A stretch of DNA of 64,000 nt from Promethearchaeia archaeon (GCA_029856125.1 JAHQWJ010000134.1:21783-85782); one strand, 5' to 3'; counted from the stretch's first letter, positions 3,165-22,626 are shown. The notes: generated by a model from the letters alone, not told the origin. A program made the numbers and translations.

Positions 3165-3188
3165 AGCTTTTATTGAAGATTTATTTTT

Positions 3189-4154: not shown

Positions 4155-4293
4155 AAATAATTCCTCTAAATATATTTTATACTAAAAAAAGTTCTCTTTA
4201 ATAAAAATTTAATTATAGGGACTTCACAAATTACATTTGTTATAACTTCCTTCTGGCAAAATTTTTATTTTTCTTATTCTTTTCTATTTTTAA

Positions 4294-6147
4294 ATGTGTG
4301 GTATTTTTGGAATAGTTACAAAGAATCAAGAAATCTCTGTAGGAAAAGTTGTCTTCGAAGGAATAAAACGTCTAGAATACCGTGGTTATGATTCATGTGG
4401 CATTGTTTCACTTTACAATTCAAAACTATTTATTAAAAAAGAAGCCGGAAAAATTGATGATATTCATAAAAAAGTCAAATTAGATGAGTTTCCTAGTGGT
4501 TCAAAACTTGCGTTAGCCCATTCAAGATGGGCTACACATGGGGCACCTACTAAACAAAATAGCCACCCCCATTTAGATTGTTTAAGCAAGATTGCAGTTG
4601 TACATAATGGGATAATAGAGAATTTTTTAGAATTACGAGATGAGCTCACTTCTATAGGACATACATTTAAATCTGAAACTGATTCCGAAGTCATTCCCCA
4701 TTTAATTGAAGATTTTATGAAAAAAGGTGATAATCTTAAGGTTGCTACTATTAACGCATTAAAAAAATGCAAAGGATCATATGCAATTGCAGTCTGTCAG
4801 ATTAATAATCCTGATTTAATTATAGTTGCTCGAAAAGAATCTCCTTTAATAATTGGAATAGAAGAGGGAAAAACAACTTATTGTTCTTCAGATATTCCTG
4901 CTTTTTTACCCTATACTAAAAAATGTTATATCATGGAAGATAACGAACTTGCTGTTTTGAAAGCGGGAGAAGTAAAATTTTTTGATCTTAAAAACGATAA
5001 TGAATTGATAATAAAAAAAATACAAACTATTGAATGGAATATTGATGCTGCGGAAAAGGGCGGTTATGAGCATTTTATGCTGAAAGAAATTTTCGAAGAA
5101 CCGAATGCATTAAGGTTTACTATGAAAATTTCAGAGCAACTTTTAAGTAAGTTTGCAAACGCTTTATTATCAGCAGATAACATATATATCACAGCAGCAG
5201 GTACATCTTATCACGCAGCACTAGCAGGAAAATTTATAATTTCTAGATTTCTTGGTAAAAACATTCAAGATATAGAATGTTCTGAATTTGAGACTCAATT
5301 AACAGGTAATTTACAAAATAATTCCGTAATTATTGCAATCTCACAATCAGGTGAAACGATTGATACGATTGAAGCGATTAGATGGGCAAAAAAGACAAAA
5401 ACTGTCAAAATCTTAACGATTACTAATGTAGTAGGCTCATCAATTACTAGGTATTCCGATCACGTGATCGTTACAAATGCAGGACCCGAGATTGGTGTTG
5501 CAGCAACAAAAACGTATAGCACGCAAGTTCTTGCTCTTGCTCTGATAGCAGTTTCAATCGCAAAAATTCGAAGAGTAATATCTGATGAAGAAATAATAAA
5601 ATACTACGATGCTTTAGCTGGAATTCCTAATATCATTGAAAAATTCCTTGAAAAAAATGTTGATTTAATCAAATATATCGTAAACAATTTAGAAAAAAAT
5701 ATGAATTATTTCTTTTTAGCAAGAGGTATTTCAATCGCAACTGCCAAAGAAGGAGGATTAAAATTAAAAGAAGTTGCCTGTCGTTTCATCGAAGGTTATT
5801 CAGCAGCTTCTGCTAAACATGGGCCAATTTCATTAGTAAGAGAAGGATTCCCTATAATTTTTATTGCTCCACCTGACGAGACATATAATAGATTAGTTGG
5901 GAATGTAATGGAGTTCAAATCTAGAGGTGGAATGATTATTTCTGTCGTTGTGGAAAACGATGAAAAAATAACAAAATTAAGTGATATAACAATTCGAATT
6001 CCTCAACCCGCAGATAAATATCATAATCTTTTCAGTCCAATTACTTTCATGCCGGCCTTACAATTATTAGCCTATTACGCTGCCTTAGCTCACGATCTAG
6101 ACCCTGATAAGCCACAAAATCTTAGTAAGACTGTAACAGTTCATTAA
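4294..6147 (+). CDS. glmS: Glutamine--fructose-6-phosphate aminotransferase (isomerizing)
   Basis: MCGIFG N-terminal nucleophile, LEYRGYDS, HSRWATHG, HNGIIEN, SQSGET, AATKT, LKLKE, KHGP and C-terminal PQNLSKTVTV. Confidence 0.96.
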   Translation: MCGIFGIVTKNQEISVGKVVFEGIKRLEYRGYDSCGIVSLYNSKLFIKKEAGKIDDIHKKVKLDEFPSGSKLALAHSRWATHGAPTKQNSHPHLDCLSKIAVVHNGIIENFLELRDELTSIGHTFKSETDSEVIPHLIEDFMKKGDNLKVATINALKKCKGSYAIAVCQINNPDLIIVARKESPLIIGIEEGKTTYCSSDIPAFLPYTKKCYIMEDNELAVLKAGEVKFFDLKNDNELIIKKIQTIEWNIDAAEKGGYEHFMLKEIFEEPNALRFTMKISEQLLSKFANALLSADNIYITAAGTSYHAALAGKFIISRFLGKNIQDIECSEFETQLTGNLQNNSVIIAISQSGETIDTIEAIRWAKKTKTVKILTITNVVGSSITRYSDHVIVTNAGPEIGVAATKTYSTQVLALALIAVSIAKIRRVISDEEIIKYYDALAGIPNIIEKFLEKNVDLIKYIVNNLEKNMNYFFLARGISIATAKEGGLKLKEVACRFIEGYSAASAKHGPISLVREGFPIIFIAPPDETYNRLVGNVMEFKSRGGMIISVVVENDEKITKLSDITIRIPQPADKYHNLFSPITFMPALQLLAYYAALAHDLDPDKPQNLSKTVTVH

Positions 6148-6161
6148 AGAAAAGACTATTG

Positions 6162-7415
6162 TTAAATAAAAGATGGAAGATATTTTAATAGGGTATTTCG
6201 AGTATTTTCAACTATACTTAGAAGCCAAGAAGTTCCAACTTTTGAATTATGTTCATTTAAATCTTTTATTACAGTGATATAATCATTCCCGGTTTTCTTA
6301 TAGATGTTATCTAGATTCTTCAAAAATTCATCTCTCCCTTTCTCATTACCCGAATATGATAGACATTCATTAAAACTATTTTCAATTTTTTGTATATTCT
6401 CAACAAGTTCTCTTTTTTGATTTAACAGTTCTTCCGATACGTTATTACCCATAACCGATTTATATAATTCTATAGATTTTTTCATCTTATTAGCTAGTTG
6501 TTTGAATCTTTTAATTCTCTCATTGAAAATAAGCTCGAGCTTTTCAACCGCACCCTCATAAAGCAATTTTTCCATATCACTTCCTTGATAGAACTTAGAA
6601 CGTACAATTATGTACCATTGTCTAAGAGCTATTATATTTGCGATATATTCAATACTATTTATGACTCTTCTTTTAACGCTCCAATATAGTCCAGGATAGA
6701 AATCCATATCCTCTTTTTGAGATTCTTTACCCATTAAAAGTGTATGCCCTTGAGGACAATCTCCTCGGTAAATAACTCCAGCTGCAATTACTGTCTTATA
6801 CCCTATCCGACTTGGACCTACTATTCCTCCTTGTCCTCCTAAAAAGATAGGAGGTTGATTGAGCATAACCCCATATGCTACATCTCCAATTAGAGATGCA
6901 GTTGCTTTATCCTGATTAGGTGTATAATTAAAATGAATATATGAACTGCCCACTTCACTATGGTTTCTTCTGTCTGTTCCGCCTGCCATTAAAATGTCAC
7001 AAAAATTGACAATGCTCCCTAATGTCACAAATGGAAAAAGGATTGTTTGTTTAAGACCTACTGTGTGAGCACCGTTAGCTTCCTCCTCCAGAAGACATCC
7101 TTCTCGGACTTCAGCGCCATCACCCATATTCGCAGAATCCAGAAATGTTGATCCTTCAAAGTACCCACCTTTTAATTCTACATTTTTCCCTAATTGACAA
7201 TTTTTAATAGTAACTGGAGATCTACTGCCCAGCTTAACTCCCGGCATAATAAGTGTCCTTTTGCCAAATATTTTACAGCCTGAGTGTATTGTAACATCCT
7301 CAGATGATATCAGATTAATGTTGACTTCTTCGCTTATTTCAACCGAAGAAGGATTTGGTATTTTGACTCCTTTTTCAATTAAAGCAGTAATTAATGAGTT
7401 TTCATTATATACCAT
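6162..7415 (-). CDS. GlmU-related left-handed beta-helix protein (putative glucosamine-1-phosphate N-acetyltransferase), without a uridyltransferase domain
   Basis: Hexapeptide-like repeats; REGCLLEEEANGAHTVGLKQT and HFNYTPNQDKAT resemble the GlmU C-terminal domain; next to glmS. Confidence 0.65.
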   Translation of the reverse strand: MVYNENSLITALIEKGVKIPNPSSVEISEEVNINLISSEDVTIHSGCKIFGKRTLIMPGVKLGSRSPVTIKNCQLGKNVELKGGYFEGSTFLDSANMGDGAEVREGCLLEEEANGAHTVGLKQTILFPFVTLGSIVNFCDILMAGGTDRRNHSEVGSSYIHFNYTPNQDKATASLIGDVAYGVMLNQPPIFLGGQGGIVGPSRIGYKTVIAAGVIYRGDCPQGHTLLMGKESQKEDMDFYPGLYWSVKRRVINSIEYIANIIALRQWYIIVRSKFYQGSDMEKLLYEGAVEKLELIFNERIKRFKQLANKMKKSIELYKSVMGNNVSEELLNQKRELVENIQKIENSFNECLSYSGNEKGRDEFLKNLDNIYKKTGNDYITVIKDLNEHNSKVGTSWLLSIVENTRNTLLKYLPSFI

Positions 7416-7512
7416 ATGCTATGATCTCTTTTTTGGTTCATCTTTCTCATTTTATTTATAATAAACAAATTTTTAAATCTAGCAAAAACAGATAACTTCT
7501 ATTTAAAGCTTT

Positions 7513-9003
7513 TTACATTTTATCAACACGAAATATGTGGCTCTTCCAACCCTCTAGTTCGACATATAACCCATTTTCATCGAGGTTCGTCCCTTTATAC
7601 TTATACTCTTTTTCATTTAGTAAATCTGTAAAGCACCAATCAGAAATTCCATAAGCAATTTCTTTTATTATTATATGAGCCTTGGAAAGATTTGGATTAT
7701 AGTTGACTACGATCAATAATCTCTGATCGCCTTTTAGCCATTGATATGAGATAATATCTTTAAATGAAGTATCGTTTGAATCCGTAGGTTCTACACCACA
7801 TAAAAGCCATTTTGCATCATCCCAATCTTTTCCAGGAATGATCTTTAAAAGTTTATCGTAGAATTCCGTAATTACTATATTGTCTTCTTCAGTAGGGCCT
7901 CGTCCTAACTGTACCGGTATCTTAATTTCGTATCCGTGTGTTTGGCCTTCATAAATCAGTCTCGCCCCCGGTAATGTTGATGTAATGATTGAAGCAGCCA
8001 TCGAAGCATTAGCTCCAAATGCTACTGCCGCTCTTGGTTCGTCGTGATTTTCAATAAATCGAAGTAGTTTATTTTGGTAATTTATATCAGCGTTAAGATG
8101 TTCTTTTATACTTTGAACATTAGATTTTATTAAACGCTCGTATAACCTTTTATCGTAACAAAAATCAAACCCTTGTTGAATCAAATCCCATTCCATATCC
8201 CAATAAACTTCAGCAATAAACTTAAAGTTTGGATATTTTTTCTTAACTGAGGATATGATATCTACCCAATACTCATTCTCAAGGGGTAAACCTGCTTTTT
8301 CACCCCAAGTTTTTTTGAACACATCATTAACCATTAACATTGCCATATCACACCTAACACCATCACACTGCTCTGCAATCGAAAGTAGAGTGTTGACCGC
8401 TTTGGAACGCGCCTCAGAAGAAAATGCATTTATTTGAACCGTGTCTGTCCAAGGGGGAAAATTAGGATCTTTACCGTGAGCATATACGGTATCTCCTATA
8501 GAAAAAAAATCGTAAGGTTTGGTCATTAAGTCTTCTAAAGTTCCTTTTATAAACACATCTGATTTCTCAAGCGTCCAAAGATGATCAATCGAAACGTGAT
8601 TAGGTACGTAATCTAAAATAAGTAGTAAATCGTTATCCTTTAAATCGGCTCTAAATGATTTGAGAGCATCAGAACCTCCTAATTGAGAACTAACATGATA
8701 ATAATACACCGAATAAGGAGACCCCACAACATCTTGGGTACTATAATATCTCAATGCTTTACGATACTCTTCTTGTAAGCCCTCATGATTCATTGCAATT
8801 TCTCTCCCTATAGGACTACGTTCCCAAACACCCATCAACCATACGACATCAAATAAAGTTAATTCTTGATCTATAATTTCAATGGGTATTGAATCAAGTT
8901 TAATATTATGACCATAAATATTAGAAAAATCCGTTAACCACGGCCATGTATTAATCTCGAATATTTTTGGATGGACTGGCCAAGAAAGTTCTTTAGTAGG
9001 CAT
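7513..9003 (-). CDS. Glycoside hydrolase family 13 (alpha-amylase family)
   Basis: LDYVPNH, catalytic GVRCDMA, FIAEVYW and FIENHDE motifs. Confidence 0.9.
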   Translation of the reverse strand: MPTKELSWPVHPKIFEINTWPWLTDFSNIYGHNIKLDSIPIEIIDQELTLFDVVWLMGVWERSPIGREIAMNHEGLQEEYRKALRYYSTQDVVGSPYSVYYYHVSSQLGGSDALKSFRADLKDNDLLLILDYVPNHVSIDHLWTLEKSDVFIKGTLEDLMTKPYDFFSIGDTVYAHGKDPNFPPWTDTVQINAFSSEARSKAVNTLLSIAEQCDGVRCDMAMLMVNDVFKKTWGEKAGLPLENEYWVDIISSVKKKYPNFKFIAEVYWDMEWDLIQQGFDFCYDKRLYERLIKSNVQSIKEHLNADINYQNKLLRFIENHDEPRAAVAFGANASMAASIITSTLPGARLIYEGQTHGYEIKIPVQLGRGPTEEDNIVITEFYDKLLKIIPGKDWDDAKWLLCGVEPTDSNDTSFKDIISYQWLKGDQRLLIVVNYNPNLSKAHIIIKEIAYGISDWCFTDLLNEKEYKYKGTNLDENGLYVELEGWKSHIFRVDKM

Positions 9004-9993: not shown

Positions 9994-11358
9994 TTAAGAA
10001 TTTCTTGTATCTATTAATCGTTCCATAAATGGCATTAGAGTTGTTCTAACTTGTTCTATATTTTCACCGATTTTTTTGAATTTGATAACTATTGCTGGTA
10101 TGTTATACTCTGCTTTTAGTTTTTCTTTTAGCTTATCATAAATTTTTGAGGTTGATGGGCACCCATATACTTGATTGAAAATCAATCCATCAATGTTCAT
10201 GTTTTCAGCAGTTTTTAAATACGAATTAGTCATGTTTTCATCGTCGCATCCTATTCCTTTTTTTGAAGCGTTTAGTAGAAAACGCGCGTATTCTTCTATA
10301 GGATCAGATTTATGAGATATGGGAATTTCTTCTAAAAATCCTAACACATCCCAATCGGCATAAATTATCCTACCCCCTAATTTGTAGATAATTTCATGAA
10401 TTTCTGGTTCCCATCCTTGATACATGGGAGCAAATAGCAACCTTGGCATATGAGAAACGTCCATTCCTACACCCTTTCTAATCCTTTCTCTCATCTCTTT
10501 AACTAAATGGCTTAAATTTTCTAAGTATCTTTGAGAGTTTGAATTATAATCTTGGAATGTGATAGTTAGGAGCGCTAAAATTTCTGCGAATGTAGCCGGA
10601 TTGCATGGATAAAAGTTAGAATCGCTAATCTCGTAAAGGATAGTTTTATAAAATCGTTTTACTTGATTGCCAATACGAAATTGCTTCTGTAAACTATTAT
10701 CTGATACAAAGTTTCCCGTGATCTTCTCTAGTTCACTAATTCCGTTCTTAACATTATTAATCATTTCCTTTAAAGCAATATCTTCATTATCTGAATTCTT
10801 TGAAGGAACATCGATTATGATTTGACTCGGTACTGTCGTTTTTAGCGATTCTGAAAAAGTATTCCAGCTACCACATCGCATTGCGAATGTAAGATTAGCG
10901 TCTAAATTTTTACCTTTAGATTTATGCATTCCATAAAGAGCGTTAATCCCGTAACATAATTCCGAAGGAACGCCATTACTAACGCCTATGTCATACATCT
11001 CATTATATTTGCTATTAATACTGGTAATGACATCTTCAAGTATCTTATCAACAATTTTTAACACGTCAAATTGGCGAGCGAACTCAAGGAATTTAGAAGT
11101 TAAATCCCATCCTAATACAGATGTAGCAGATTGCAAAGGCATCAAATACTTGCTAACTTCGAAGGTTTCCATTCGAATTGGGAATACGGGGACTGCACCA
11201 ACTGCAAAAGCTAAATCAGGAAATCCTAAAGCAACTGAAATGAGTTTTTTCTTCTCTCTAATTTTTTTTTTCCGTAAATAATCTCTACCCGTCAAAAAGT
11301 TTGAAGCCATTTTTAGAACAGATGTAAAGCTTATAACATCATCAGCGTATATGCTCGT
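9994..11358 (-). CDS. 2-hydroxyacyl-CoA dehydratase family subunit (HgdA/FldB-like), paralogue 2; probable start at ACG 11358 (first ATG at 11310)
   Basis: Collinear with 19240..20598 and keeps the Cys ligands ELCYG, MRCG and YGCP. The 16 codons upstream of ATG 11310 (ACG-SIYADDVISFTSVLK) align with the paralogue's MSLIADEIITFSSVLR. Confidence 0.8.
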   Translation of the reverse strand, partial: TSIYADDVISFTSVLKMASNFLTGRDYLRKKKIREKKKLISVALGFPDLAFAVGAVPVFPIRMETFEVSKYLMPLQSATSVLGWDLTSKFLEFARQFDVLKIVDKILEDVITSINSKYNEMYDIGVSNGVPSELCYGINALYGMHKSKGKNLDANLTFAMRCGSWNTFSESLKTTVPSQIIIDVPSKNSDNEDIALKEMINNVKNGISELEKITGNFVSDNSLQKQFRIGNQVKRFYKTILYEISDSNFYPCNPATFAEILALLTITFQDYNSNSQRYLENLSHLVKEMRERIRKGVGMDVSHMPRLLFAPMYQGWEPEIHEIIYKLGGRIIYADWDVLGFLEEIPISHKSDPIEEYARFLLNASKKGIGCDDENMTNSYLKTAENMNIDGLIFNQVYGCPSTSKIYDKLKEKLKAEYNIPAIVIKFKKIGENIEQVRTTLMPFMERLIDTRNS

Positions 11359-12017: not shown

Positions 12018-13367
12018 GTGATATTTTCGCAAAAAAATAAAAAAAATAAGAGAGTGATAATAATAAGGACAAAAATTATTGAGAAATTAATAACTATGAA
12101 CGAGATTTCTTCAACTATCCAACAAATTTTTAAATCTGAATTCAGGATTTCTAAAAATTCTATTATCTCTGAGGAATACCTATTAATTATAGGTCATAGT
12201 GAAGAAGGTCTTATTTCAGTGGTTCAGGCTTCAATAAATAATAATTTTGAGAGGACTCGCATATCCATATTGGTGTTCAACCCTCATTCATTAGCTGAAG
12301 AATTAAATATACAACAAGAATCGCATAACTTTTTAAGCTTAATTGAAGGAAAATTGATTCGATCAGTAAAGGAGGGCGTTAAAAATAAATTTTGTAACCC
12401 ATTTACAGAACTTTCTAAATTTCAATTAGAGAAAACTCAAGAAAAAAGGAAGATATTTTCGCTCGAAACGAGTATACTAAATGAAATAGTTAAGCACTTA
12501 TATCATATAAATGACTTTTCAGATGAAATTATGAAATTTCCTTTTTCTATAAACCATATTGAAGGAAAGTGGGAAGAATGGGATAAAATTTATTTTCCAT
12601 ATATTGAATTAATTGAAAATAATATAATTAAGACTTATACAAAAGATACAAAAGTGTATCGCAATTATAATTTTGCTGAAAATGGTGATAGTTTTCAAAG
12701 AATAATAGATCTATTGATAGTTACTAAAAAAGAATCTATCCCAGAACTCAAAAATAAAGGTACTGAAGAAATAAATCCCTTTGATTATGAGATTAGTTTT
12801 ATTTATTGTAATAGAATGTCTAAACCATTTAAATATATGAATTTATTAAAATTTGTGAATGAAATTAAGTCATTTTCGGAGAAATTCAAAAATGATAAAA
12901 AAAATAAATGTAATATTATCATTCCACAATTAATTTTAGTATCCCAATTTGGATATGACATAGGAATTAAGGATTATTTGAGAACCCATCTGGTTAGAGA
13001 AGTAGATTATACTATTCCTTTAATGCTAATACCTCCTTTCAATGGTGATGATGAAGTGTGGCATAATTTTATCGAAAATGAGGATTCAAAACCACAAAAA
13101 CGAAACGATTTGGAAAATATTATACGAATAGGTAATAGTGAGCATTCATCATCTTCATTTAAAAATAATATGGTAAAATCGGCAAAAAGCGAATATAGCC
13201 AAATAATTGCAAGAAATAAATTGGCTAAATTCGATAGTGACTTTTTAAATAAGTGGCATTTGATACTCGATGTTTCTAAATCAAAGGAAATTCTAAAAAC
13301 CAATGAAGATAATGAGAAATTTGGCAAAAACATTAATATCGTAAAAGATGAGGTACCTATTTATTAA
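12018..13367 (+). CDS. Hypothetical protein with a possible degenerate PD-(D/E)xK (Mrr-like) nuclease fold; alternative start at ATG 12096
   Basis: IIDLLIV...FIYCNRMSK...LILVSQFGYD follows the Mrr_cat pattern (iDll...vqcKr...gilvttsgF), but the ExK residues are replaced. Confidence 0.6.
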   Translation: MIFSQKNKKNKRVIIIRTKIIEKLITMNEISSTIQQIFKSEFRISKNSIISEEYLLIIGHSEEGLISVVQASINNNFERTRISILVFNPHSLAEELNIQQESHNFLSLIEGKLIRSVKEGVKNKFCNPFTELSKFQLEKTQEKRKIFSLETSILNEIVKHLYHINDFSDEIMKFPFSINHIEGKWEEWDKIYFPYIELIENNIIKTYTKDTKVYRNYNFAENGDSFQRIIDLLIVTKKESIPELKNKGTEEINPFDYEISFIYCNRMSKPFKYMNLLKFVNEIKSFSEKFKNDKKNKCNIIIPQLILVSQFGYDIGIKDYLRTHLVREVDYTIPLMLIPPFNGDDEVWHNFIENEDSKPQKRNDLENIIRIGNSEHSSSSFKNNMVKSAKSEYSQIIARNKLAKFDSDFLNKWHLILDVSKSKEILKTNEDNEKFGKNINIVKDEVPIY

Positions 13368-13392
13368 GGTATTATTCCACAATCATAGAATA

Positions 13393-13464
13393 TTATTTGA
13401 ACATTTCCATAAAAGCTCCAAGTCGAGTTTTTACTTCCTCTACATTTTCTCCTATTTTATTAAA
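13393..13464 (-). pseudogene. Remnant 1 of the dehydratase alpha-subunit 3' end
   Basis: Minus strand reads FNKIGENVEEVKTRLGAFMEMFK*, versus FNKIGDNVEQVKTRLGAFMEMFKY* at the end of 19240..20598. Confidence 0.9.
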
Positions 13465-13495
13465 ATAAAATTTATGAGGTAAAGAATAAGGGTTT
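13464..13495 (+). repeat. Direct repeat A, copy 2
   Basis: Matches 11434-11464. Confidence 0.6.
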
Positions 13496-13510
13496 ATGAT
13501 TTTATCTGAA
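13490..13510 (+). repeat. Direct repeat B, copy 1
   Basis: GGGTTTATGATTTTATCTGAA versus GGGTTTATGATTTTATTCTGAA at 15929-15950; 16 nt exact. Confidence 0.7.
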
Positions 13511-13630
13511 CATCTTCATAAAAACTCCAAGATGAGTTTTTATTTCTTCGATTTTTTCGCCAATTTTATTAGATATAATTGTTAATGATGGTATTTCAAG
13601 TACTCAACATAATTTTTCTTTTAACATAAC
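13502..13630 (-). pseudogene. Remnant 2 (more decayed) of the dehydratase alpha-subunit 3' end
   Basis: Minus strand reads VMLKEKLC*VLEIPSLTIISNKIGEKIEEIKTHLGVFMKMFR*, versus AMLREKVRRELEIPITAITFNKIGDNVEQVKTRLGAFMEMFKY*; it contains an internal TGA. Confidence 0.85.
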
Positions 13631-13772: not shown

Positions 13773-13791
13773 AAGAAAATGAAAATATGAA
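13773..13791 (+). repeat. Direct repeat C, copy 1
   Basis: AAGAAAATGAAAATATGAA is identical at 15975-15993. Confidence 0.7.
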
Positions 13792-13805: not shown

Positions 13806-14792
13806 ATGACTAAGGAAAAAATAAAAATTTGCGTACTTGAGAAAAAACGAGGAAATTTTTCAATACAAGAGAAATTTGCTAAAAACGAAAATATTATCGA
13901 TACAACTAATCAAGAAGTAGAACATCATTTAAGTGCTTTAAATGAAGCGGGTTATGATGTAAAAATATTAAAATGGAATGACAATATAATTTATGATTTA
14001 AAAAGTCTTGACATTGATATCGTATTTAATGTATCCAGCATTGTTGAAACAGCTATTTTAGAAGAATTAGAGATACCTTATGTAGGGTCTGATATTTTTG
14101 GATGCGTTATAGCAACCGATAAGGTTCTTACTAAAGACTTGTGGTTTAAAAAAGGATTACCAACATCACCTTATATTTTAGCAAGATCAAAAGAGGATTG
14201 TGAAATTTTTAAGAAAAACAAGCCATTTGATTATCCTTTATTTATAAAACCCTCTCAAGGGAGAGGAAGTTCTGGAATCGATGAATCCTCACTTATCTAT
14301 TCATATAACGAATTAATTAAAGGAGTTGAAAAAAGATTAAACACAATAAATCAACCTGTTCTTATTGAAAAATTTTTAAGAGGTAGGGAAATAACATGTG
14401 GAATTATTGGTAATGGAAATCAGATTAAAGCCTTACCTTTATTAGAAATAATACACAAGGAAAAGGAAAAATTCTTGACATTTAATAAAAAAGAGTTAGA
14501 TGACGATAAATTCCAATGCCCTGCAAAATTAACTCCGAAACAGTCTAAAGAATTACAGAAATTAGCTATTTCAGCATTTCAAGCGATAAATCTTAGAGAT
14601 TATGGTCGTGTAGACATCATCTTATCAGAAGAAGGTCCTTTTTTATTAGAAATAAATTGTTTTGCAGGATTAATGTGTACACCAAAAGATAAACCTCATA
14701 GTTACATGGGCTTTATGGCAATTGCAGAAAACAAAAAAAGTAGTGAATTCTTAGATGAAATTATAAAAGAAGCATTAAAAAGAATTGGATAA
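13806..14792 (+). CDS. D-Ala-D-Ala ligase-like ATP-grasp amide ligase
   Basis: IPYVGS, DKVLTK, YPLFIKPSQGRGSSGI, LIEKFLRGREITCG, YGRVD and LEIN motifs. Confidence 0.85.
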   Translation: MTKEKIKICVLEKKRGNFSIQEKFAKNENIIDTTNQEVEHHLSALNEAGYDVKILKWNDNIIYDLKSLDIDIVFNVSSIVETAILEELEIPYVGSDIFGCVIATDKVLTKDLWFKKGLPTSPYILARSKEDCEIFKKNKPFDYPLFIKPSQGRGSSGIDESSLIYSYNELIKGVEKRLNTINQPVLIEKFLRGREITCGIIGNGNQIKALPLLEIIHKEKEKFLTFNKKELDDDKFQCPAKLTPKQSKELQKLAISAFQAINLRDYGRVDIILSEEGPFLLEINCFAGLMCTPKDKPHSYMGFMAIAENKKSSEFLDEIIKEALKRIG

Positions 14793-14834
14793 CTTTCGTT
14801 CAAACTAAAAACAAACTGTATTATGTGAAGTAAA

Positions 14835-15920
14835 ATGCCAATACTTGAAATAAATTTGAGAAAAATTAGACATAACGCAAAATTATTAAAGAATCTTTTA
14901 ACTCAGCGAAATGTATCTATTATTGGAATTACAAAACTTGTCTTAGGAAACCCTACTATTGCAATGACGTTGGTTCAAGGAGGAATAGAGTATTTAGGAG
15001 ATTCACGAATTAACAATATTATTAAAATGAAAAAAAAAAATATTAGAGCTCAATTTGTTTTAATTCGTATTCCAAGCATTACTGAAATTCCTCTTGTTGT
15101 TAAATACGCAAATTATAGCCTAAATTCAGAATTAAAGACCATAAGAATGCTTTCAAATGAAGCCGTTAAACAAAAAAAGATACATAATATAATTCTAATG
15201 GTAGATATGGGAGATTTAAGAGAAGGAATAAATATATTCAATATTGAATTTTTTGTCGAAGAGATTTTAAAACTAAAAAATATAAATTTAAGTGGAATTG
15301 GTACAAATTTCAAATGTTTTGGTGGTATCATCCCGACAGATGAAAATATGAATGAATTTTCAAAATTAGTCTTTAGGATCAAGGATAAATTTGAATTGGA
15401 ATTAGAATTTGTTTCAGGAGGAAATTCTGCAAATTTTAATTGGTTTAAATCGTGTAAAAACATTGGTGAAATAAATAATTTTAGAATTGGGGAAGCCATG
15501 TTTCTAGGAAAAGAAACGATAAATTATGAACCAATTCCAAATCTCTATACAGACGCTTTTAAGTTAATAACAGAGATTGTTGAGTTAAAACAAAGATCTG
15601 TAATCCCCAAAGGGATTATTGTATCAAATGCATTTGGGGAACGTGTCCAAACTTCCCATAAAAAAATTAACAATGGTAAAAAAAGCGATATAATTAGAAC
15701 ACAAGCACTTTTAAATATAGGTAGACAAGATATTGCAGTAAAAGGATTAAATCCGAAAGAAAGTATTAATATTCTTGGAGCTTCAAGCGACTACTTAGTT
15801 GTAGATATAAGAGATAATCAATTTCAGATTGGACAAAAATTGCATTTTGATTTGAATTATGAAGCTCTTTTAAGAGCAATGACTAGTCCCTATATCCATA
15901 AGAAATTTATCGATATTTAA
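14835..15920 (+). CDS. PLP-dependent alanine/ornithine racemase family enzyme (Orr/YhfX-like)
   Basis: GITK (PLP lysine), LGDSRINN, MVDMGDLREG, GTNFKCFGG, SGGNS, RIGEA, GRQD and GASSDY motifs. Confidence 0.88.
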   Translation: MPILEINLRKIRHNAKLLKNLLTQRNVSIIGITKLVLGNPTIAMTLVQGGIEYLGDSRINNIIKMKKKNIRAQFVLIRIPSITEIPLVVKYANYSLNSELKTIRMLSNEAVKQKKIHNIILMVDMGDLREGINIFNIEFFVEEILKLKNINLSGIGTNFKCFGGIIPTDENMNEFSKLVFRIKDKFELELEFVSGGNSANFNWFKSCKNIGEINNFRIGEAMFLGKETINYEPIPNLYTDAFKLITEIVELKQRSVIPKGIIVSNAFGERVQTSHKKINNGKKSDIIRTQALLNIGRQDIAVKGLNPKESINILGASSDYLVVDIRDNQFQIGQKLHFDLNYEALLRAMTSPYIHKKFIDI

Positions 15921-15928
15921 ATTTACAT

Positions 15929-15993
15929 GGGTTTATGATTTTATTCTGAATGGTAACAAAACACATTTTAAAAGAAGAAAATGAAAATATGAA
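15929..15993 (+). repeat. Direct repeats B (15929-15950) and C (15975-15993), copy 2
   Basis: A shortened copy of the 13490-13791 intergenic region. Confidence 0.7.
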
Positions 15994-16338
15994 TATTTTT
16001 TTTATTTAGTAAGGATAAATTTAAATTTATTGAAAAAAGTTCTAAAAAGCATCCATATTATTACATTAGACTCTTAATTTACTTAAAAGACGTAAAATTT
16101 TAAATAATGTGACTGATTTAATAAGAATAGGAAAAATTTTGCATTGAAACTTAAAACGGTATAATTATCTAAATATTAGAATATATTTTTGTATCCAATA
16201 TATTAGGGATATAATTAGAACAACTGGTTTTTTACTGTTATTATTCTATAGAATACTAATAATCACTATTCTGTAATCCAGTAAGTTTCTTTAATGCTTA
16301 TTTCAAATATTGTTTGAAGGGTGTTTTATTCAATAAAG

Positions 16339-18075
16339 ATGACTAACGCTTATTTAGAGAAAAAAAAAAATACAAGGATCTTAACAGCATGTATAGGACA
16401 ATGCGTGCATGTAGCAGGTACATATAATTTCATTCAAATTTCAAAACAGTTGGGTTATAATAATATATTTTTAGGACCTGCTACCCCTATTTCAATTGTT
16501 ATAGATCAAATTAAAAAGTATGACCCTAACATTGTAGGACTTAGTTATCGTTTAACGGCAGACACTGTTAGACCTTTACTAAATGAATTTTTTAAAAATT
16601 TTATAAAATTAGAGAAAAAACCAAAAAAATTATTTTTTGCTGGAACACCTGAAGTAGTTGAGATCGCAAGAAAATATGAATGGTTCGATGAATATTTTGT
16701 TGGAGGAGAATCAAAATTTGAATTAATTTCTATCTTGAGAAATGAGAAATTAAAATCAGAAAGTAAAACAGAAGTCCCTATGGATATTATTTCTCGAATA
16801 CAATGGAAGAAACCTTATCCTGTAATTAGAGCGCACTTTGGATTACCTAATTTCAATGAAACAATAGAAGGAATAAAAAAAATTGCTAAAGCTAAAGTCT
16901 TAGATGTTATTTCAATTGCGCCCGATCAAAATACGCAAGCAAATTACTTCCACCCTGAAAATCAAGATAAAAAATTATCCGGAGCGGGTGGGGTTCCTTT
17001 GCGTACTCAGCAAGATTTCGAAAAGCTCCATCAAGCAAGATTAACCGGAAACTATCCGATGTTAAGGATATATGCTGGAACACGCGATTTCATTAAATTA
17101 GGAAAATTGTATCGAGATACAATTCAAAATGCCTGGGCAGCAATCCCTATTTTTTGGTTTAATCAAATGGATAGAAGGGGGCCGTTAACTTTAAAAGAAT
17201 CGATTAAACAGCATCTAAACGCAATAAAGTGGCACGGAAAGTACAATATTCCCGTTGAAGTAAACGATCCACATCAATGGAGCCTTCGAAATGCTCCAGA
17301 TGCTATAGCTGTTGCCGATATGTATTTATGTGGAATTATAGCGAAAAAATTAGGCGTCAAAAATTATATAGCACAGTATATGTTTAATACACCTCCATCA
17401 AGTTCACTTGATATGGACTTAGCAAAAATTCTCGCTAAAGATGAGTTACTTCAAACGTTATCCAATGAGAATTTTACGATAATTAAGCAAGTTCGGACGG
17501 GATTAGCAAGTTTCCCATTAGATTTGGATAAAGCAAAAGGACAACTTGCTACAGCGACATTTGTTCAATTAGCTATTAGACCAGACATTGTTCATGTAGT
17601 TAGTTATTCTGAAGCTAGTCATACAGCTCGTCCAGAAAATGTAATAGAAAGTTGTAAAATTGTGGATCAAGTAATAGATAGAGTTTATTCCAGTAAAATT
17701 AACATTATAGATAAAAAAATTGAGGAAAGGAAAGAAGAATTAATAAGACAAGCCAAATGGATAGTTGACTTAATACCACATTTAACAAAAAATGAAGATG
17801 AATCGAAAAGTCCATATACCAATTATGAAGTCTTAAATCGACTCGTAAAATATGGTATATTTGATGCTCCACATTTGAAAAATAATAAATTTGCTTTGGG
17901 TAAAATTAAAACCAAAATAATTAATGGTGCTTGCTATTCATGGAATGAATCTCAGCAAAAAATTTACGATGAAATTGAAAGAATAAAAGACATTATTTTT
18001 AATAGCCCATTTAAAAATTCTTGTGACTCATTACAACAAAAAGAAAAATCCATCACAAAGGTGTTGGATAAATGA
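16339..18075 (+). CDS. Cobalamin-binding protein; putative single-chain glutamate-mutase-like (sigma+epsilon fusion) AdoCbl enzyme (frame is open from GTG 16321)
   Basis: N-terminal B12 Rossmann domain (CVHVAG = DxHxxG variant, LGP, VGLS, FAG). The C-terminal barrel segments GVKNYIAQY, FPLDLDKAKGQLATAT and SEASH recall glutamate mutase E. Confidence 0.75.
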   Translation: MTNAYLEKKKNTRILTACIGQCVHVAGTYNFIQISKQLGYNNIFLGPATPISIVIDQIKKYDPNIVGLSYRLTADTVRPLLNEFFKNFIKLEKKPKKLFFAGTPEVVEIARKYEWFDEYFVGGESKFELISILRNEKLKSESKTEVPMDIISRIQWKKPYPVIRAHFGLPNFNETIEGIKKIAKAKVLDVISIAPDQNTQANYFHPENQDKKLSGAGGVPLRTQQDFEKLHQARLTGNYPMLRIYAGTRDFIKLGKLYRDTIQNAWAAIPIFWFNQMDRRGPLTLKESIKQHLNAIKWHGKYNIPVEVNDPHQWSLRNAPDAIAVADMYLCGIIAKKLGVKNYIAQYMFNTPPSSSLDMDLAKILAKDELLQTLSNENFTIIKQVRTGLASFPLDLDKAKGQLATATFVQLAIRPDIVHVVSYSEASHTARPENVIESCKIVDQVIDRVYSSKINIIDKKIEERKEELIRQAKWIVDLIPHLTKNEDESKSPYTNYEVLNRLVKYGIFDAPHLKNNKFALGKIKTKIINGACYSWNESQQKIYDEIERIKDIIFNSPFKNSCDSLQQKEKSITKVLDK

Positions 18076-19178
18076 GATTCTGTGTCATTGGAGCCGGAAA
18101 CGGTGGTCGAGCGTTTGCGGCATATTTATCATCTAAAGGAAATTCTGTGAACCTTTATAACCGTTCATACTCTAGAATTTATGAAATCAAAAAGAAGGGA
18201 GGTATAAAAGCAAAAGGAAAATTAAAAGGTTTTTTTCCCATTGATCTAATTACACAAAAACTACACTTGGCAGTTAAGGATGCAGATATTATTTTAATAG
18301 TAACTCCTGCTTCAGCACATAAAAATATTGCTAAAAACATTGCACCTTTTTTAACAAACGATCAGATAATATTGTTGAATCCAGGTAGAACTTTTGGAGC
18401 AGTAGAGGTTAGAAGTATAATAGAAAAGGAAAGAGGGAATCTCCCTATTTTCATTGCTGAAACCCAAACATTACTTTTTACATCAAGACAATTGAAAAAA
18501 AACAAGGTTCAAATTCTTACACTTAAGGATTCTGTTGAATTTTCGGCTTTTCCAGAGAAGGATACATTTTTCATCAGCGATACATTGAGAGATGTTTTTC
18601 CCCAAATGAAACCTAATGATAATTATCTGCAAGTTACATTAAATAATATTGGGATGTTATTGCATCCAACTCTATCATTAATGAACGCTAGTGCAATAGA
18701 TTATGGAAGAAAGTTCAAATTTTATGCACAAGGGGCATCTTCACATACATGTGAAATTCTTGAGACGCTCCAAATGGAATTCAGAAAGATTTTTGATAAG
18801 TTAAATTTAAAACAAATAAATTTTTGTAAATGGGTGGAGAAATCTTATGGATTTAAAGCAAACAGTATCTATAAAGCTATTCAAAAAGTAAAAGCATATA
18901 AAAACATTGTTGCTCCAAAAGAATTAATAACTAGATATTTCACTGAAGATATTCCAACTGGACTTGTACCTATGGCGTCAATAGGAGAATTCTTAGAAAT
19001 TTCTACACCTATAATTGATTCTATCATAAATTTATCTTCGATTTTATGTGGAATTGATTTTAAAAAAGAGGGAAGAAACATTATGAACTTAAATTTGGCT
19101 GACTATATAACGAAACAAATGAAAGGAGAAGAAGCGTTTGAAATAGAAAAAAGTTCAAAAGCACAAATCAGTACTTAA
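18072..19178 (+). CDS. NAD/NADP octopine/nopaline (opine) dehydrogenase family protein
   Basis: GAGNGG Rossmann motif, LNPGRTFG, LNNIGMLLHP, FKFY and RYFTEDIPTGLVP motifs; 4-bp ATGA overlap with the B12 gene. Confidence 0.92.
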   Translation: MRFCVIGAGNGGRAFAAYLSSKGNSVNLYNRSYSRIYEIKKKGGIKAKGKLKGFFPIDLITQKLHLAVKDADIILIVTPASAHKNIAKNIAPFLTNDQIILLNPGRTFGAVEVRSIIEKERGNLPIFIAETQTLLFTSRQLKKNKVQILTLKDSVEFSAFPEKDTFFISDTLRDVFPQMKPNDNYLQVTLNNIGMLLHPTLSLMNASAIDYGRKFKFYAQGASSHTCEILETLQMEFRKIFDKLNLKQINFCKWVEKSYGFKANSIYKAIQKVKAYKNIVAPKELITRYFTEDIPTGLVPMASIGEFLEISTPIIDSIINLSSILCGIDFKKEGRNIMNLNLADYITKQMKGEEAFEIEKSSKAQIST

Positions 19179-19239: not shown

Positions 19240-20598
19240 CTAATATTTAAACATTTCCATAAAGGCACCGAGTCTGGTCTTCACTTGTTCTACATTGTCG
19301 CCAATTTTATTGAATGTAATTGCTGTAATCGGTATTTCAAGTTCTCGTCTTACTTTCTCTCTTAACATCGCATAGCAATTTGAGATAGAATGGCACCCAA
19401 ATAATTGAAAGAATACTATACCATCTGCATTTAAATCCGATGCCATTCTCAAATAAGAATCTGTTAATTTGTCATTATCGCAACCTATTCCTGTTTCTGT
19501 AGCTCTCATAAGAAATCGAGCGTATTCTTCTGAAGGATTCGTGTGTGATCCGGTCGGTATTTCTTCTAAGAATTTTAATAACTCCCAATCAGCGTATAAA
19601 GCTCTCCCTCCTAACTCATAAAGAATCTCGTGCGTTTTTGGTTCCCATCCTCCGAACATTGGGGTCACGAAAATCCTAGGCATTTTTGACACATCCATAC
19701 CAATTCCATTTCTAATTCTTTCCCTCATTTCTTTTTCGAGCGCTACTATGTTGTCTCTGTATCGGGTCGCATTAGAATTATAATCTTGAAAGGTTATACT
19801 TAGCAGTGCCATAATTTCACTGAAAGTTGCAGGGTTACAAGGATAAAAATCAGAAGCACTTATGTCGTAAATAATGTTCTTATACGACCTTTTTATTTGA
19901 TTTCCTATTTTAAAATGTTCTCTTAAGTCATTATCTGTTATGCTATTACCTGTCAGCTTCTCGAATTCGTTTAGGGCGTTTGAAATATTATCGGTAAGTA
20001 ATTCAATTGAGTTTCCCAAATTTCTCGGTGGAATATCAATCCAGATTTGGCTTGGCTTTTCATTAATTGACTTCAAAGACTCTAAATATTTATTATACGC
20101 ACTACAACGAATTGTAACATTTAAACAAGCATCAACATTTCGACCTTTAGTGACATGCATACCAACTAAACTCTTTAATCCGTAACAGAAGTCACTTGAA
20201 ATTCCATTTTCAATTCCAACATCATACATTTCGTTGTATTTTACATTAATAGTGTCAATTACATTCTCTATAATATCGTCGACGATTTTACTAACTTCAT
20301 TTATGCCCAGATTTTTAATAAAGCTTAGAAAATTCGAAACATTCTTCCACCCAAAAATACTAGATGCAGAACCTAAGTAAGAAAGATATTGGCTTATTTC
20401 AAATTTATGCATCCTTATTGGAAAAACTGGCACCGTGCCAGCAGCAAAAGCTAAATCCGAAAACGGCAAAGTAACAGCTACTAATTTTTCTTTTTCTCGA
20501 AATTTCTTCCTTTTTAGGTAATTTCGCCCATTTAACAGATTGTAAGCCATACGTAATACTGAACTGAAAGTTATAATCTCATCGGCAATTAAACTCAT
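19240..20598 (-). CDS. 2-hydroxyacyl-CoA dehydratase family subunit (alpha-type)
   Basis: DFCYG, IRCS and FGCH Cys motifs; C-terminal QVKTRLGAFMEM is typical of the HGD-D family; operon with the activator. Confidence 0.88.
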   Translation of the reverse strand: MSLIADEIITFSSVLRMAYNLLNGRNYLKRKKFREKEKLVAVTLPFSDLAFAAGTVPVFPIRMHKFEISQYLSYLGSASSIFGWKNVSNFLSFIKNLGINEVSKIVDDIIENVIDTINVKYNEMYDVGIENGISSDFCYGLKSLVGMHVTKGRNVDACLNVTIRCSAYNKYLESLKSINEKPSQIWIDIPPRNLGNSIELLTDNISNALNEFEKLTGNSITDNDLREHFKIGNQIKRSYKNIIYDISASDFYPCNPATFSEIMALLSITFQDYNSNATRYRDNIVALEKEMRERIRNGIGMDVSKMPRIFVTPMFGGWEPKTHEILYELGGRALYADWELLKFLEEIPTGSHTNPSEEYARFLMRATETGIGCDNDKLTDSYLRMASDLNADGIVFFQLFGCHSISNCYAMLREKVRRELEIPITAITFNKIGDNVEQVKTRLGAFMEMFKY

Positions 20599-21734
20599 TT
20601 CATCATCTCCAAATACGCTTCTATTCTTGTAGATAATTGACCACGGTTAGCTCTGGAATAATCTCTTTCTAAATTTAGTACTTGAATCCCTTTTTCTTGT
20701 AATGCATCTTTTAAGAAAGACGACATTAGCGAAATATGATCACAAAACTTTATTATATGATTGATGACACCTAACTTTCTACCTTTATTTTTTGTGTAAT
20801 TTTCAGAATATTTCTGTATAACTGATACTTTCTGTTTAAGAAAGTCAGGTACGCTATGGTCACCATAAATATTATTTTTAAACCTAAGAACTAACAAATC
20901 CAAAGGATCTTTCTTTATGTCCATGTGATTGCTCTCAATAACTTGCGAATAATAATGGTTCCCAATCCAAGTATCAAAAAAAACAATGTTACCTCCCCCC
21001 TCCTCAATCAAGTCTATCATATTATCATTAATAAAGATTGAGCAACCAGTAAGTAAAACGTCTTTAGATGTATTAGAAACGGGTTGAGGAGTGTCTTTAA
21101 ATTTTTGAATCAAATTCTCTAAATCGTGAAGAAAATCTGGTCCAAATAGCATTGATTTATGAATTAATTTCAATCTTTCCGAGCCTCGCATTTCCAGCTC
21201 ATTGATTTCTAATAATTTTTTTTTGAAATTATTGAATTTTAATATGCTGTTATAAATATCCTCATCAGGTATTTTTCTATCCAAAATAGCTTCAAGTTGA
21301 TTTCTAAAGTCTTGCAATTCGAGCTTAAAATATTTCAGGCTGTTTTCGTTCATTGTATAAGGAACATAAAAATTCAAACGAGGAATATTAAAGTATTTGG
21401 AAATGATTTCTGAAACGCAAATATCTGATACGCAGTGATTGGAAACTATAATGTAATCAACCAATTCCAAAAACTTGTAGTAGTTTGGTTTAATTGAAAA
21501 TAATCCAATACACGATTGTGCAAATGCACACATGGATGGAGGTAAATAATCGTGACTCGCGTCCATTAGTTCATCGTTCCCTCCAAAGATTAACTTTAAG
21601 GGAAAAAAACCAGCAGCATCAATCAATTCCTCAGGAATATTATCGTGAGCTAGGTAAGCGATAATTTTGATCCCTTCCTGTTTTTTTTCTTTTAGGAAGA
21701 GGTTGAAGTCAGATAGTAGATTAGAGTCATCCAT
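20595..21734 (-). CDS. 2-hydroxyacyl-CoA dehydratase family subunit (beta-type)
   Basis: IPEELIDAAG, SMCAF, KFCD and GQLSTRIEAYLEM motifs. Confidence 0.9.
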   Translation of the reverse strand: MDDSNLLSDFNLFLKEKKQEGIKIIAYLAHDNIPEELIDAAGFFPLKLIFGGNDELMDASHDYLPPSMCAFAQSCIGLFSIKPNYYKFLELVDYIIVSNHCVSDICVSEIISKYFNIPRLNFYVPYTMNENSLKYFKLELQDFRNQLEAILDRKIPDEDIYNSILKFNNFKKKLLEINELEMRGSERLKLIHKSMLFGPDFLHDLENLIQKFKDTPQPVSNTSKDVLLTGCSIFINDNMIDLIEEGGGNIVFFDTWIGNHYYSQVIESNHMDIKKDPLDLLVLRFKNNIYGDHSVPDFLKQKVSVIQKYSENYTKNKGRKLGVINHIIKFCDHISLMSSFLKDALQEKGIQVLNLERDYSRANRGQLSTRIEAYLEMMK

Positions 21735-21846: not shown

Positions 21847-22626
21847 CTATTGCGAGTTATTCGCTTCTGCGATTAAAGCAGCACCGATAGCACCTGTTAA
21901 TTGGGGAAAATCAGGCGTTTCAACTTCATAACCAAGTTCGTCCTCAAGATATTTTTTCACAGCAGGGTTTTTTGCTACTCCACCACAAAAAACTAATTGT
22001 TGTCCCACTCCGATACGTTTAGCCATTCCAGCAACTCTTCTCGCAATTGATCTATGAATACCGCTGGCAATTTCTTCTTTAGAAGCGCCCCTCGCAAACA
22101 AACTAATAACTTCACTCTCAGCAAAGACCGTACATGTGGAACTTATTGAAGCCGATTTGTTAGATCTTAAAGCCAAATCTCCAAATTGGTCAATAGGAAC
22201 CTCCAAAGCGTGTGCCATAACTTCTAAAAATCTTCCCGTTCCTGCCGCACACTTATCGTTCATTTGAAAATCGACGACATTTCCCGTTTTCTTAGATATT
22301 ACAATAGCTTTACTGTCTTGGCCACCAATATCAATAACGGAATGTACGTCTGGGAAGAAGTATTGCGTTCCTTTAGCATGAGCAGTAATTTCAGTTACCC
22401 GATCGTCAGCTATATCGATCGTATTCCGGCCATAACCGGTACTCATGACGAATACATCAGATTTTTTCAAATCGTTTTTCTCCAATAAGTCGTCGAATAA
22501 ATTATGACCGATCTTTTTAAAATCATAAGTGGAGCGTTCTGTGCGGTGATCTATCATCTTTCCTTCGCCGAGTAAAACGATTTTTGTGGCAAGAGAGCCA
22601 ATATCAATTCCTATAAAAGTTTTCAA
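21847..22626 (-). CDS. hgdC: 2-hydroxyacyl-CoA dehydratase activator (HgdC / BadF-BadG-BcrA-BcrD ATPase)
   Basis: GIDIGS, TGYGR, DIGGQDSK, MNDKCAAGTGRFLE, STCTVFAESEV and GGVAKN motifs. Confidence 0.93.
   Translation of the reverse strand: MKTFIGIDIGSLATKIVLLGEGKMIDHRTERSTYDFKKIGHNLFDDLLEKNDLKKSDVFVMSTGYGRNTIDIADDRVTEITAHAKGTQYFFPDVHSVIDIGGQDSKAIVISKKTGNVVDFQMNDKCAAGTGRFLEVMAHALEVPIDQFGDLALRSNKSASISSTCTVFAESEVISLFARGASKEEIASGIHRSIARRVAGMAKRIGVGQQLVFCGGVAKNPAVKKYLEDELGYEVETPDFPQLTGAIGAALIAEANNSQ

Follow-up and report, generated by a model that had tools for sequence, protein, structure and literature searches.

A predicted B12 mutase and an opine dehydrogenase beside a ligase-racemase gene pair in an Asgard archaeon

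The four genes and their products

The DNA analysed here is a stretch of 64,000 nucleotides (64 kb; 'the window') from a Promethearchaeia archaeon (GCA_029856125.1, JAHQWJ010000134.1:21783-85782). The host is an Asgard (Promethearchaeota) genome of 3.69 Mb that is 99% complete and has a guanine plus cytosine (GC) content of about 31%. Four open reading frames (ORFs) lie on the same strand at positions 13806-19178. A preliminary description of the sequence had reported four co-oriented genes with an ATGA overlap between the last two, and our ORF check of the window agrees: all four are intact and the overlap, at 18072-18075, holds the stop codon of the third and the start codon of the fourth. 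In order, they encode a Ddl-family ATP-grasp ligase, a pyridoxal phosphate (PLP) enzyme of the alanine/ornithine racemase family, a single-chain B12 enzyme (here called the mutase) and an opine dehydrogenase. We propose, with a probability of roughly 0.55, that they form one functional system of two modules, mutase-dehydrogenase and ligase-racemase, which would build a small molecule derived from amino acids. This estimate includes the stepwise mechanism and the solute role set out below. The earlier treatment of the four genes as one set is supported by repeated co-localisation of the two pairs.

The mutase (16339-18075, + strand) has 578 amino acids from an ATG at 16339; an alternative GTG start at 16321 would give 584. 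Its predicted architecture, based on an AlphaFold2 (AF2) model, Foldseek and conserved motifs, is an N-terminal cobalamin-binding domain with a CxHxxG motif followed by a GlmE-like TIM barrel. Domain profiles give the same order, a B12-binding domain and then a MutE-like domain (PF06368, 32.9 bits against a cut-off of 26.6). The best Foldseek match of the model (pLDDT 88) is glutamate mutase E (1cb7_B/6h9e_B, E 1e-16), with a TM score on the target (TMt) of 0.65-0.67, and the next are the lysine and ornithine aminomutases and methylmalonyl-CoA mutase. The B12 loop reads C-V-H-V-A-G, and C22, H24 and G27 hardly vary among 20 sequences. Some homologues are fused to MutL, the glutamate mutase reactivase family, and neither Pfam nor Foldseek revealed a radical S-adenosylmethionine (SAM) domain in the mutase. 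Because of the GlmE fold and the MutL-fused relatives, the protein is probably of the adenosylcobalamin (AdoCbl) isomerase type, with adenosylcobalamin as its cofactor, as the preliminary description had suggested.

It is not a true glutamate mutase. The TIGR01503 equivalog model scores it at 22.2 bits against a cut-off of 390.1, the loop is CxHxxG and the pocket residues are altered. The residues that we take to bind substrate in GlmE are Arg66, Arg100, Arg149, Glu171, Tyr177 and Tyr181 (positions checked on true GlmE proteins). An hhalign comparison of the mutase family with three true GlmE sequences is weak (probability 49%, 19% identity) and may misplace residues by a few positions; it places H166 at R66, Q200 at R100, Y245 at R149, A267 at Y177 and I271 at Y181, with E171 in a deletion. 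In the same weak alignment, the conserved Arg164 and Arg243 of the mutase fall two residues before GlmE arginine positions, on the same strands. The reference GlmE proteins came from Clostridia genomes (loci L108-L110); a PDB sequence search with the mutase family profile gave B12 domains only.

The mutase family is large, with 639 representative clusters from Asgard archaea, Chloroflexota, Bacillota and others. Selenocysteine was considered for the mutases of one Asgard family (f8) and rejected: the 'in-frame TGA' in L014 (G046:C42) is a stop directly before the conserved N-terminus. The f8 mutases with this upstream TGA probably start at a non-ATG codon. The host genome contains one CobA-type adenosyltransferase match and at least ten other B12-binding proteins. 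This match, the only one of CobA/CobO type (G000:C118:19321-19863, G000 being the host genome), has a TAG inside the matched frame.

The opine dehydrogenase (18072-19178, + strand, 368 amino acids) is translationally coupled to the mutase. It scores 130.5 bits with the Octopine_DH model PF02317 (cut-off 30) and matches N-(1-D-carboxyethyl)-L-norvaline dehydrogenase (CENDH, 1bg6) end to end, over residues 3-344, with an E-value of 5e-76. The histidine, arginine and aspartate aligned to H202, R292 and D297 of CENDH, which we take to be its catalytic residues, are all identical. The original assignment as an opine dehydrogenase therefore stands, with the catalytic residues of the family retained.

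The ligase (13806-14792, + strand, 328 amino acids; PF07478, 103.9 bits) belongs to a non-canonical subfamily: its best score among the NCBIfam Ddl/Van models is 147.9 bits, below the cut-off of 243. Alignment to Yersinia Ddl (4zqi) shows that the catalytic R/D/E/N set is retained (GRvD and lEiN), corresponding to what are presumably the Ddl catalytic residues Arg255, Asp257, Glu270 and Asn272 in Escherichia coli numbering. In the omega-loop, the equivalent of Lys215 is kept and Tyr216 is replaced by Glu230, a glutamate that is invariant in 15 family members.

The racemase (14835-15920, + strand, 361 amino acids; PF01168, 87 bits) is assigned at family level only, since its score with the curated Orr model NF040742 (369.5 bits) is below the cut-off of 480. 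Bacteroidota homologues at about 50% identity (P0210, P0214, P0223, P0231 and P0238) are fused to VanY/VanX-type D-Ala-D-Ala peptidase domains (PF02557, PF01427). At two metagenome loci, which belong to the same population and share 96% ligase identity, the racemase match is in two pieces and may be frameshifted (L121:4562-5088 and L122:4381-5369).

Linkage and history of the two pairs

We searched 251 genomes of the Asgard phylum for all four proteins. The mutase was found in 98 and the dehydrogenase in 101; the two genes are adjacent in about 90 genomes, in either order, the rest being at contig ends (as read from coordinate tables). Loci from genomes of Chloroflexota, Bacillota, Poribacteria and Methanomicrobia, 80 in all, also pair the two genes. 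The ligase is present in 10 Asgard genomes, eight of which have the racemase next to it; the racemase occurs in 15. All 10 ligase-bearing genomes contain the mutase. The preliminary description must be corrected on two points. The racemase is linked to the ligase and not to the mutase pair, and the core mutase-dehydrogenase pair usually occurs without either.

A second sample consisted of 72 metagenome contigs anchored on the ligase, from which the window's own population was excluded. The racemase adjoins the ligase in most of these loci. Mutase and/or dehydrogenase genes are present in 23 of the 72, usually within 0.4 kb, and the proportion is 8/16 for contigs with at least 1.5 kb on both sides and 6/10 for those with at least 3 kb. 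The linked contigs range in GC content from 0.28 to 0.64, show at least seven gene orders and carry mutases of two deep subfamilies (about 42% and 30% identity to that of the window).

A locus in another Asgard genome (L113) has, in a different genomic context, the order ligase (75% identity), racemase (67%), small ORF, mutase (45%) and dehydrogenase (43%). Here a close relative of the window's cassette adjoins a distant version of the core pair. Non-canonical Ddl-like genes are also co-oriented with the dehydrogenase and mutase on several Bacillota contigs and one from Poribacteria (L057, L065, L096, L102 and L045), and the ligase of L102 falls inside the clade of the window's ligase. The ATP-grasp genes near the core pair in Tepidanaerobacter (L062, L079 and L087) were rejected as examples of linkage; they are housekeeping Ddl genes (451-462 bits) on the opposite strand.

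On a mutase tree of 54 rows, the label 'ligase-linked' needs 10 changes, at least five of which are forced by supported branches, and the window's mutase is sister to an unlinked one. The Asgard mutases are polyphyletic on this tree: those of family f1 form their own clade, those of f8, f13 and f23 lie with a Methanomicrobia sequence inside the Bacillota part and those of f6 are near Poribacteria. Because of this polyphyly, the tree points to transfer of the core pair between domains.

Co-clustering of the two pairs is thus frequent. It is not obligatory, because eight f6 genomes keep them on different contigs. One explanation is that these are two unrelated cassettes, a mobile ligase-racemase pair having landed by chance beside an old mutase-dehydrogenase pair with which it shares no metabolite. 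This was our working reading from the 251-genome sample and from loci L002-L006. Within that sample, the ligase-racemase pair adjoins the mutase only in the host genome and a 95%-identical relative (G125); the f6 genomes separate the pairs, L004 and L006 show ligase and racemase alone, and the pair is clearly an insertion in this species. The ligase-anchored loci and the mutase tree overturned it as a working reading. Chance does not readily account for adjacency that recurs in so many gene orders, over such a range of GC content and in both deep mutase subfamilies, for the arrangement in L113, for the mutase in every ligase-bearing Asgard genome or for a known fusion of mutase and ATP-grasp domains (P0364). 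We retain unrelated cassettes as a minor and quite unlikely alternative. That the two pairs might never occur together elsewhere, a possibility raised beforehand, is contradicted by L113, the metagenome loci and the tree.

The history of the locus in this genome can be read from its relatives. The ancestral order in the family, which contains neither ligase nor racemase, is orf191-HGD-mutase-dehydrogenase-(...)-HGD-HGD-activase (L025, L026, L029, L030 and L040), where HGD denotes an HGD-D dehydratase-type gene. Since these relatives show the same gene order without them, the ligase-racemase pair is an insertion between a dehydratase gene and the resident mutase. The preliminary description placed all four genes in an accessory island. 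This is correct for the ligase-racemase pair and, separately, for a further gene upstream (orf449), but not for the mutase-dehydrogenase pair, which occupies its ancestral position. One relative of the same genus (L026, G104:C23) has two tandem copies of the mutase-dehydrogenase pair, at 3178-5957 and 13907-16686, about 9 kb apart.

The inserted cassette is bracketed by an exact direct repeat of 19 nucleotides on the + strand. The left copy (13773-13791) ends 15 nucleotides upstream of the ligase start and the right copy (15975-15993) begins 55 nucleotides after the racemase stop. These two are the only exact copies in the window, where 0.06 would be expected, and the repeat was seen only in contigs of the window's population, in the same two places. 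The 3' end of an HGD-D dehydratase gene has left two remnants (13391-13573, - strand, repeat family D1) that are 80% identical to 19241-19314; a shorter remnant lies at 15929-15950. We regard the two as scars of earlier insertions.

Upstream of the ligase, orf449 (12018-13367, + strand) has no recognisable domain and matches no Pfam or NCBIfam family. Its position varies: in L117 it lies downstream of the dehydrogenase (6713-7987) and in L118 and L121 it is absent. Such variation within one population probably marks it as a mobile insertion in its own right and not as a part of the pathway. Homologues at 32% identity lie near the cluster in L005 (8024-9325) and L035 (4592-5899). In the window, orf449 ends beside the HGD gene-tail remnants, suggesting that it is mobile and inserts at the 3' ends of HGD genes.

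A possible shared pathway and its rivals

The core pair has other companions that recur. One is asparagine synthase B (AsnB), found next to it in 11 bacterial and five Asgard loci. Further recurrent neighbours include DUF5698/DUF2179 membrane proteins, CitMHS together with CBS, MFS transporters, Peptidase_C26 and GCS2, an HDAC-like amidohydrolase and a second ligase and racemase. The fusion P0364, in which the mutase is joined to an ATP-grasp domain, lies inside an operon of the form dehydrogenase-fusion-Peptidase_C26. Judged by these neighbourhoods, the ligase may be replaced in other lineages by an asparagine-synthase-type amidotransferase, a GshB/RimK-type ATP-grasp enzyme or a GCS2 ligase.

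In Bacillota the operon has a distinctive regulatory element. The cyclic di-AMP (c-di-AMP) riboswitch RF00379 directly precedes the genes at 15 of the 17 loci (E 1e-19 to 1e-27) and, in L057, L065 and L096, the riboswitch-led operon takes in the ligase. OFF-switches of this kind usually control osmotic and cell-wall genes and are atypical of catabolic operons. Cultured carriers of the operon include Caldanaerobacter subterraneus, Thermoanaerobacter thermocopriae, Tepidanaerobacter acetatoxydans and Bellilinea caldifistulae.

We infer from the linkage and the partner genes that the four enzymes share a metabolite. In the first step, the dehydrogenase, which is presumably NAD(P)-dependent, would reductively couple a glutamate-like acidic amino acid to a 2-oxo acid, giving an N-carboxyalkyl (opine-type) secondary amine. 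By radical chemistry, the mutase would then rearrange the carbon skeleton of the resulting N-substituted compound; such a substrate would fit the loss of the residue that holds the free amino group of glutamate in GlmE. The racemase would supply a D-amino acid. This may be a basic one (D-Orn or D-Lys), because the ligase has an invariant glutamate at the position of Ddl Tyr216. Finally, the ligase would join the D-amino acid to the product by an amide bond. Our best guess for the result is an opine-type conjugate containing a D-amino acid, possibly an osmolyte. In the most speculative step, it would serve as a metabolically inert compatible solute or potassium counter-ion, a role suggested by the position of the Bacillota operon behind a c-di-AMP riboswitch. 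A bolder version we advance only tentatively, thinking it more probably wrong than right: that the mutase represents a new class of AdoCbl carbon-skeleton isomerase acting on an opine made by its partner, and that anaerobic archaea and bacteria use the D-amino-acid opine conjugate as a compatible solute or potassium counter-ion, which in Bacillota is controlled by c-di-AMP.

One rival reading concerns the direction of flow. The convergent neighbours of the cluster are two HGD-D dehydratase-type genes, an activase and VIT1 genes, and a third HGD-D gene lies upstream; the three HGD-D paralogues (2-hydroxyacyl-CoA dehydratase or double-cubane reductase-like) and the activase occupy 9994-11310, 19240-21734 and 21847-22626. 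The route could be catabolic, with uptake and breakdown of D-amino-acid peptides or opine-like compounds; the remains of bacterial cell walls in sediments would be one example of a source. Oxidative cleavage of a secondary amine would then fall to the dehydrogenase and conversion of D- to L-amino acids to the racemase, and the mutase would open a carbon skeleton for fermentation. Besides the 2-hydroxyacyl-CoA-dehydratase-type genes and activase beside the pair in family f1, this would explain the fusion of some bacterial racemase homologues to VanX/VanY-type dipeptidases, the recurrence of hydrolases (Peptidase_C26, HDAC-like) and transporters (MFS, CitMHS) and, in Tissierellia, the proximity of the pair to genes for 2-oxoacid:ferredoxin oxidoreductase, ptb and buk. 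However, the HGD synteny is kept in this one Asgard family and in no other family or bacterium, and the commonest partners are ATP-consuming, amide-forming enzymes (ATP-grasp, AsnB and GCS2), one of them fused to the mutase. A c-di-AMP OFF-switch would also be atypical of breakdown. We consider a catabolic role unlikely.

The Tissierellia neighbourhood admits another interpretation, as the pair there lies between genes for the oxidation of branched-chain 2-oxoacids and a fab operon. The core pair alone might form a bypass from 2-oxoglutarate/glutamate through 3-methyl-oxaloacetate to 2-oxobutyrate, a route to isoleucine or branched-chain precursors with an amino-acid carrier, to which the ligase and racemase would be an unrelated addition. 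Such a route would be redox-neutral on paper, and one mutase homologue is followed by aconitase/LeuCD-like subunits (L112). These contexts are single or restricted to a lineage, and the bypass leaves the recurrent ligases, AsnB, hydrolases, transporters and riboswitch unexplained; we regard it as very unlikely. The homologue in L112 (163-4105) has 732 amino acids and a weak C-terminal match to Peptidase_M15_3, and is translationally coupled to the large and small aconitase/LeuCD-like subunits.

A number of observations weigh against the two-module biosynthetic system that we prefer. As to linkage, 88 of the 98 Asgard genomes with the core pair have neither ligase nor racemase, the pairs are on different contigs in the eight f6 genomes and, among ligase-racemase loci with long flanks, about one in two lacks a mutase nearby (for example, L147, L148, L149 and L192). 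The metagenome loci were picked by their ligase, so their frequencies are not genome-wide rates. As to the riboswitch, it is a clue limited to Bacillota: RF00379 was found in 0/8 Chloroflexota loci, in 0/13 four-gene loci and nowhere in the window, and no c-di-AMP cyclase (DAC) was found in the 99%-complete host genome. Neither a PduO-type adenosyltransferase nor MutL was found in that genome. The B12 loop of the mutase has a cysteine where the canonical motif (DxHxxG) has an aspartate, the pocket comparison with GlmE uses a weak match and every chemical step of the proposed pathway is hypothetical.

To our knowledge, only about a dozen adenosylcobalamin isomerase reactions have been described, and we know of no B12 mutase with an opine dehydrogenase as its invariant partner. 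The mutase family is widespread and its pocket is different. Knowing its reaction would bring to light a further kind of radical rearrangement and probably also small molecules of a new class. It would assign a role to a c-di-AMP-regulated operon of cultured thermophilic Firmicutes and explain the presence of a Ddl-like ligase and a racemase in wall-less Asgard archaea.

Relation to characterised systems

The closest structural relative of the mutase is the glutamate mutase GlmS/GlmE of Clostridium cochlearium (1CB7, 6H9E). The barrels agree with a TM score of about 0.66 on the target, both have a Rossmann B12 domain with a histidine ligand and some relatives of the mutase are fused to MutL. 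Unlike GlmS/GlmE, the mutase combines both parts in one chain, headed by the B12 domain, and has CxHxxG in place of DxHxxG, and its partner is an opine dehydrogenase, whereas that of glutamate mutase is methylaspartase. The dehydrogenase itself resembles CENDH of Arthrobacter (1BG6) over its full length and keeps the catalytic His/Arg/Asp. It differs from characterised opine dehydrogenases in its position beside a B12 mutase in nearly all genomes; we know of no characterised member that is encoded in this way.

The ligase and racemase recall pairs of the Alr/Ddl and VanT/VanC types, in which a PLP racemase gene adjoins a Ddl-family ATP-grasp ligase with intact catalytic residues. Here, however, the host is a murein-less Asgard, the ligase scores below all Ddl/Van cut-offs and has a glutamate for the specificity tyrosine, and the racemase is nearest to Orr while remaining below its cut-off. 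Ornithine fermentation (Orr-OraSE-Ord) likewise combines a racemase, a B12 TIM-barrel isomerase and an NAD(P) dehydrogenase, and the ornithine and lysine aminomutases (OAM and KAM) are the second-best structural matches. It differs in that the conserved-motif alignment of the mutase family shows no invariant lysine in the B12 domain to hold PLP, the dehydrogenase is of another family, a ligase is present and no OrtAB thiolase was found among the genes scanned near the cluster.

The preliminary description also drew parallels with the staphylopine (CntKLM) and pyrrolysine (PylBCD) pathways. These hold as analogies and not beyond: CntL and a radical-SAM PylB are missing and the racemase is of a different type. 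An opine-type metallophore like staphylopine or pseudopaline, in which the ligase would take the place of the nicotianamine-synthase-like CntL, would by analogy account for a dehydrogenase of the same Pfam family as CntM and for a racemase, as in CntK. However, neither CntL nor a DapF-type racemase was found among the ten window neighbour proteins scanned or the recurrent neighbours elsewhere, and no metal-uptake transporter among the neighbours scanned. The racemase is of PLP type, regulation in Bacillota is by c-di-AMP and not by a metal sensor, and the dehydrogenase is far closer to CENDH than to any other solved structure. We consider a metallophore the least likely of the alternatives.

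For the proposed solute, the nearest analogy is the N-acetylglutaminylglutamine amide (NAGGN) osmolyte pathway, with its ATP-grasp enzyme Ngg and its amidotransferase AsnO. By this analogy, the ATP-grasp and/or asparagine-synthase-type genes that accompany the cluster could serve a similar end, with an osmotic link through c-di-AMP in Bacillota. Unlike the NAGGN enzyme, AsnB here matches asparagine synthase B; the NAGGN amidotransferase model gives 290 bits against a cut-off of 570.

In the open-access literature, we found no paper that joins Asgards, glutamate mutase, opine dehydrogenase, ATP-grasp or the c-di-AMP riboswitch in this combination. The preliminary description knew of no described pathway with this combination, and we know of none either, although the gene association itself was predicted in 2009. 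Zhang, Rodionov, Gelfand and Gladyshev (BMC Genomics 10:78, PMC2667541) predicted, without characterising it, a B12-dependent protein family that carries a distant B12-binding domain at its N-terminus and is encoded 'always adjacent to' a pfam02317 octopine/nopaline dehydrogenase, and called for experiments. They noted D-Ala:D-Ala ligase and asparagine synthase near its genes in several organisms. Their analysis covered 11 bacteria in four phyla and gave neither a fold for the catalytic domain nor a function; the racemase, archaea, fusions and the riboswitch are not mentioned. We found no later characterisation of the family in the open-access literature. The question of its function dates from that prediction, and the cultured hosts make direct testing possible. 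By description, the family studied here is the same one: the B12 domain, the adjacency to pfam02317 and the Ddl and AsnB neighbours are all reproduced.

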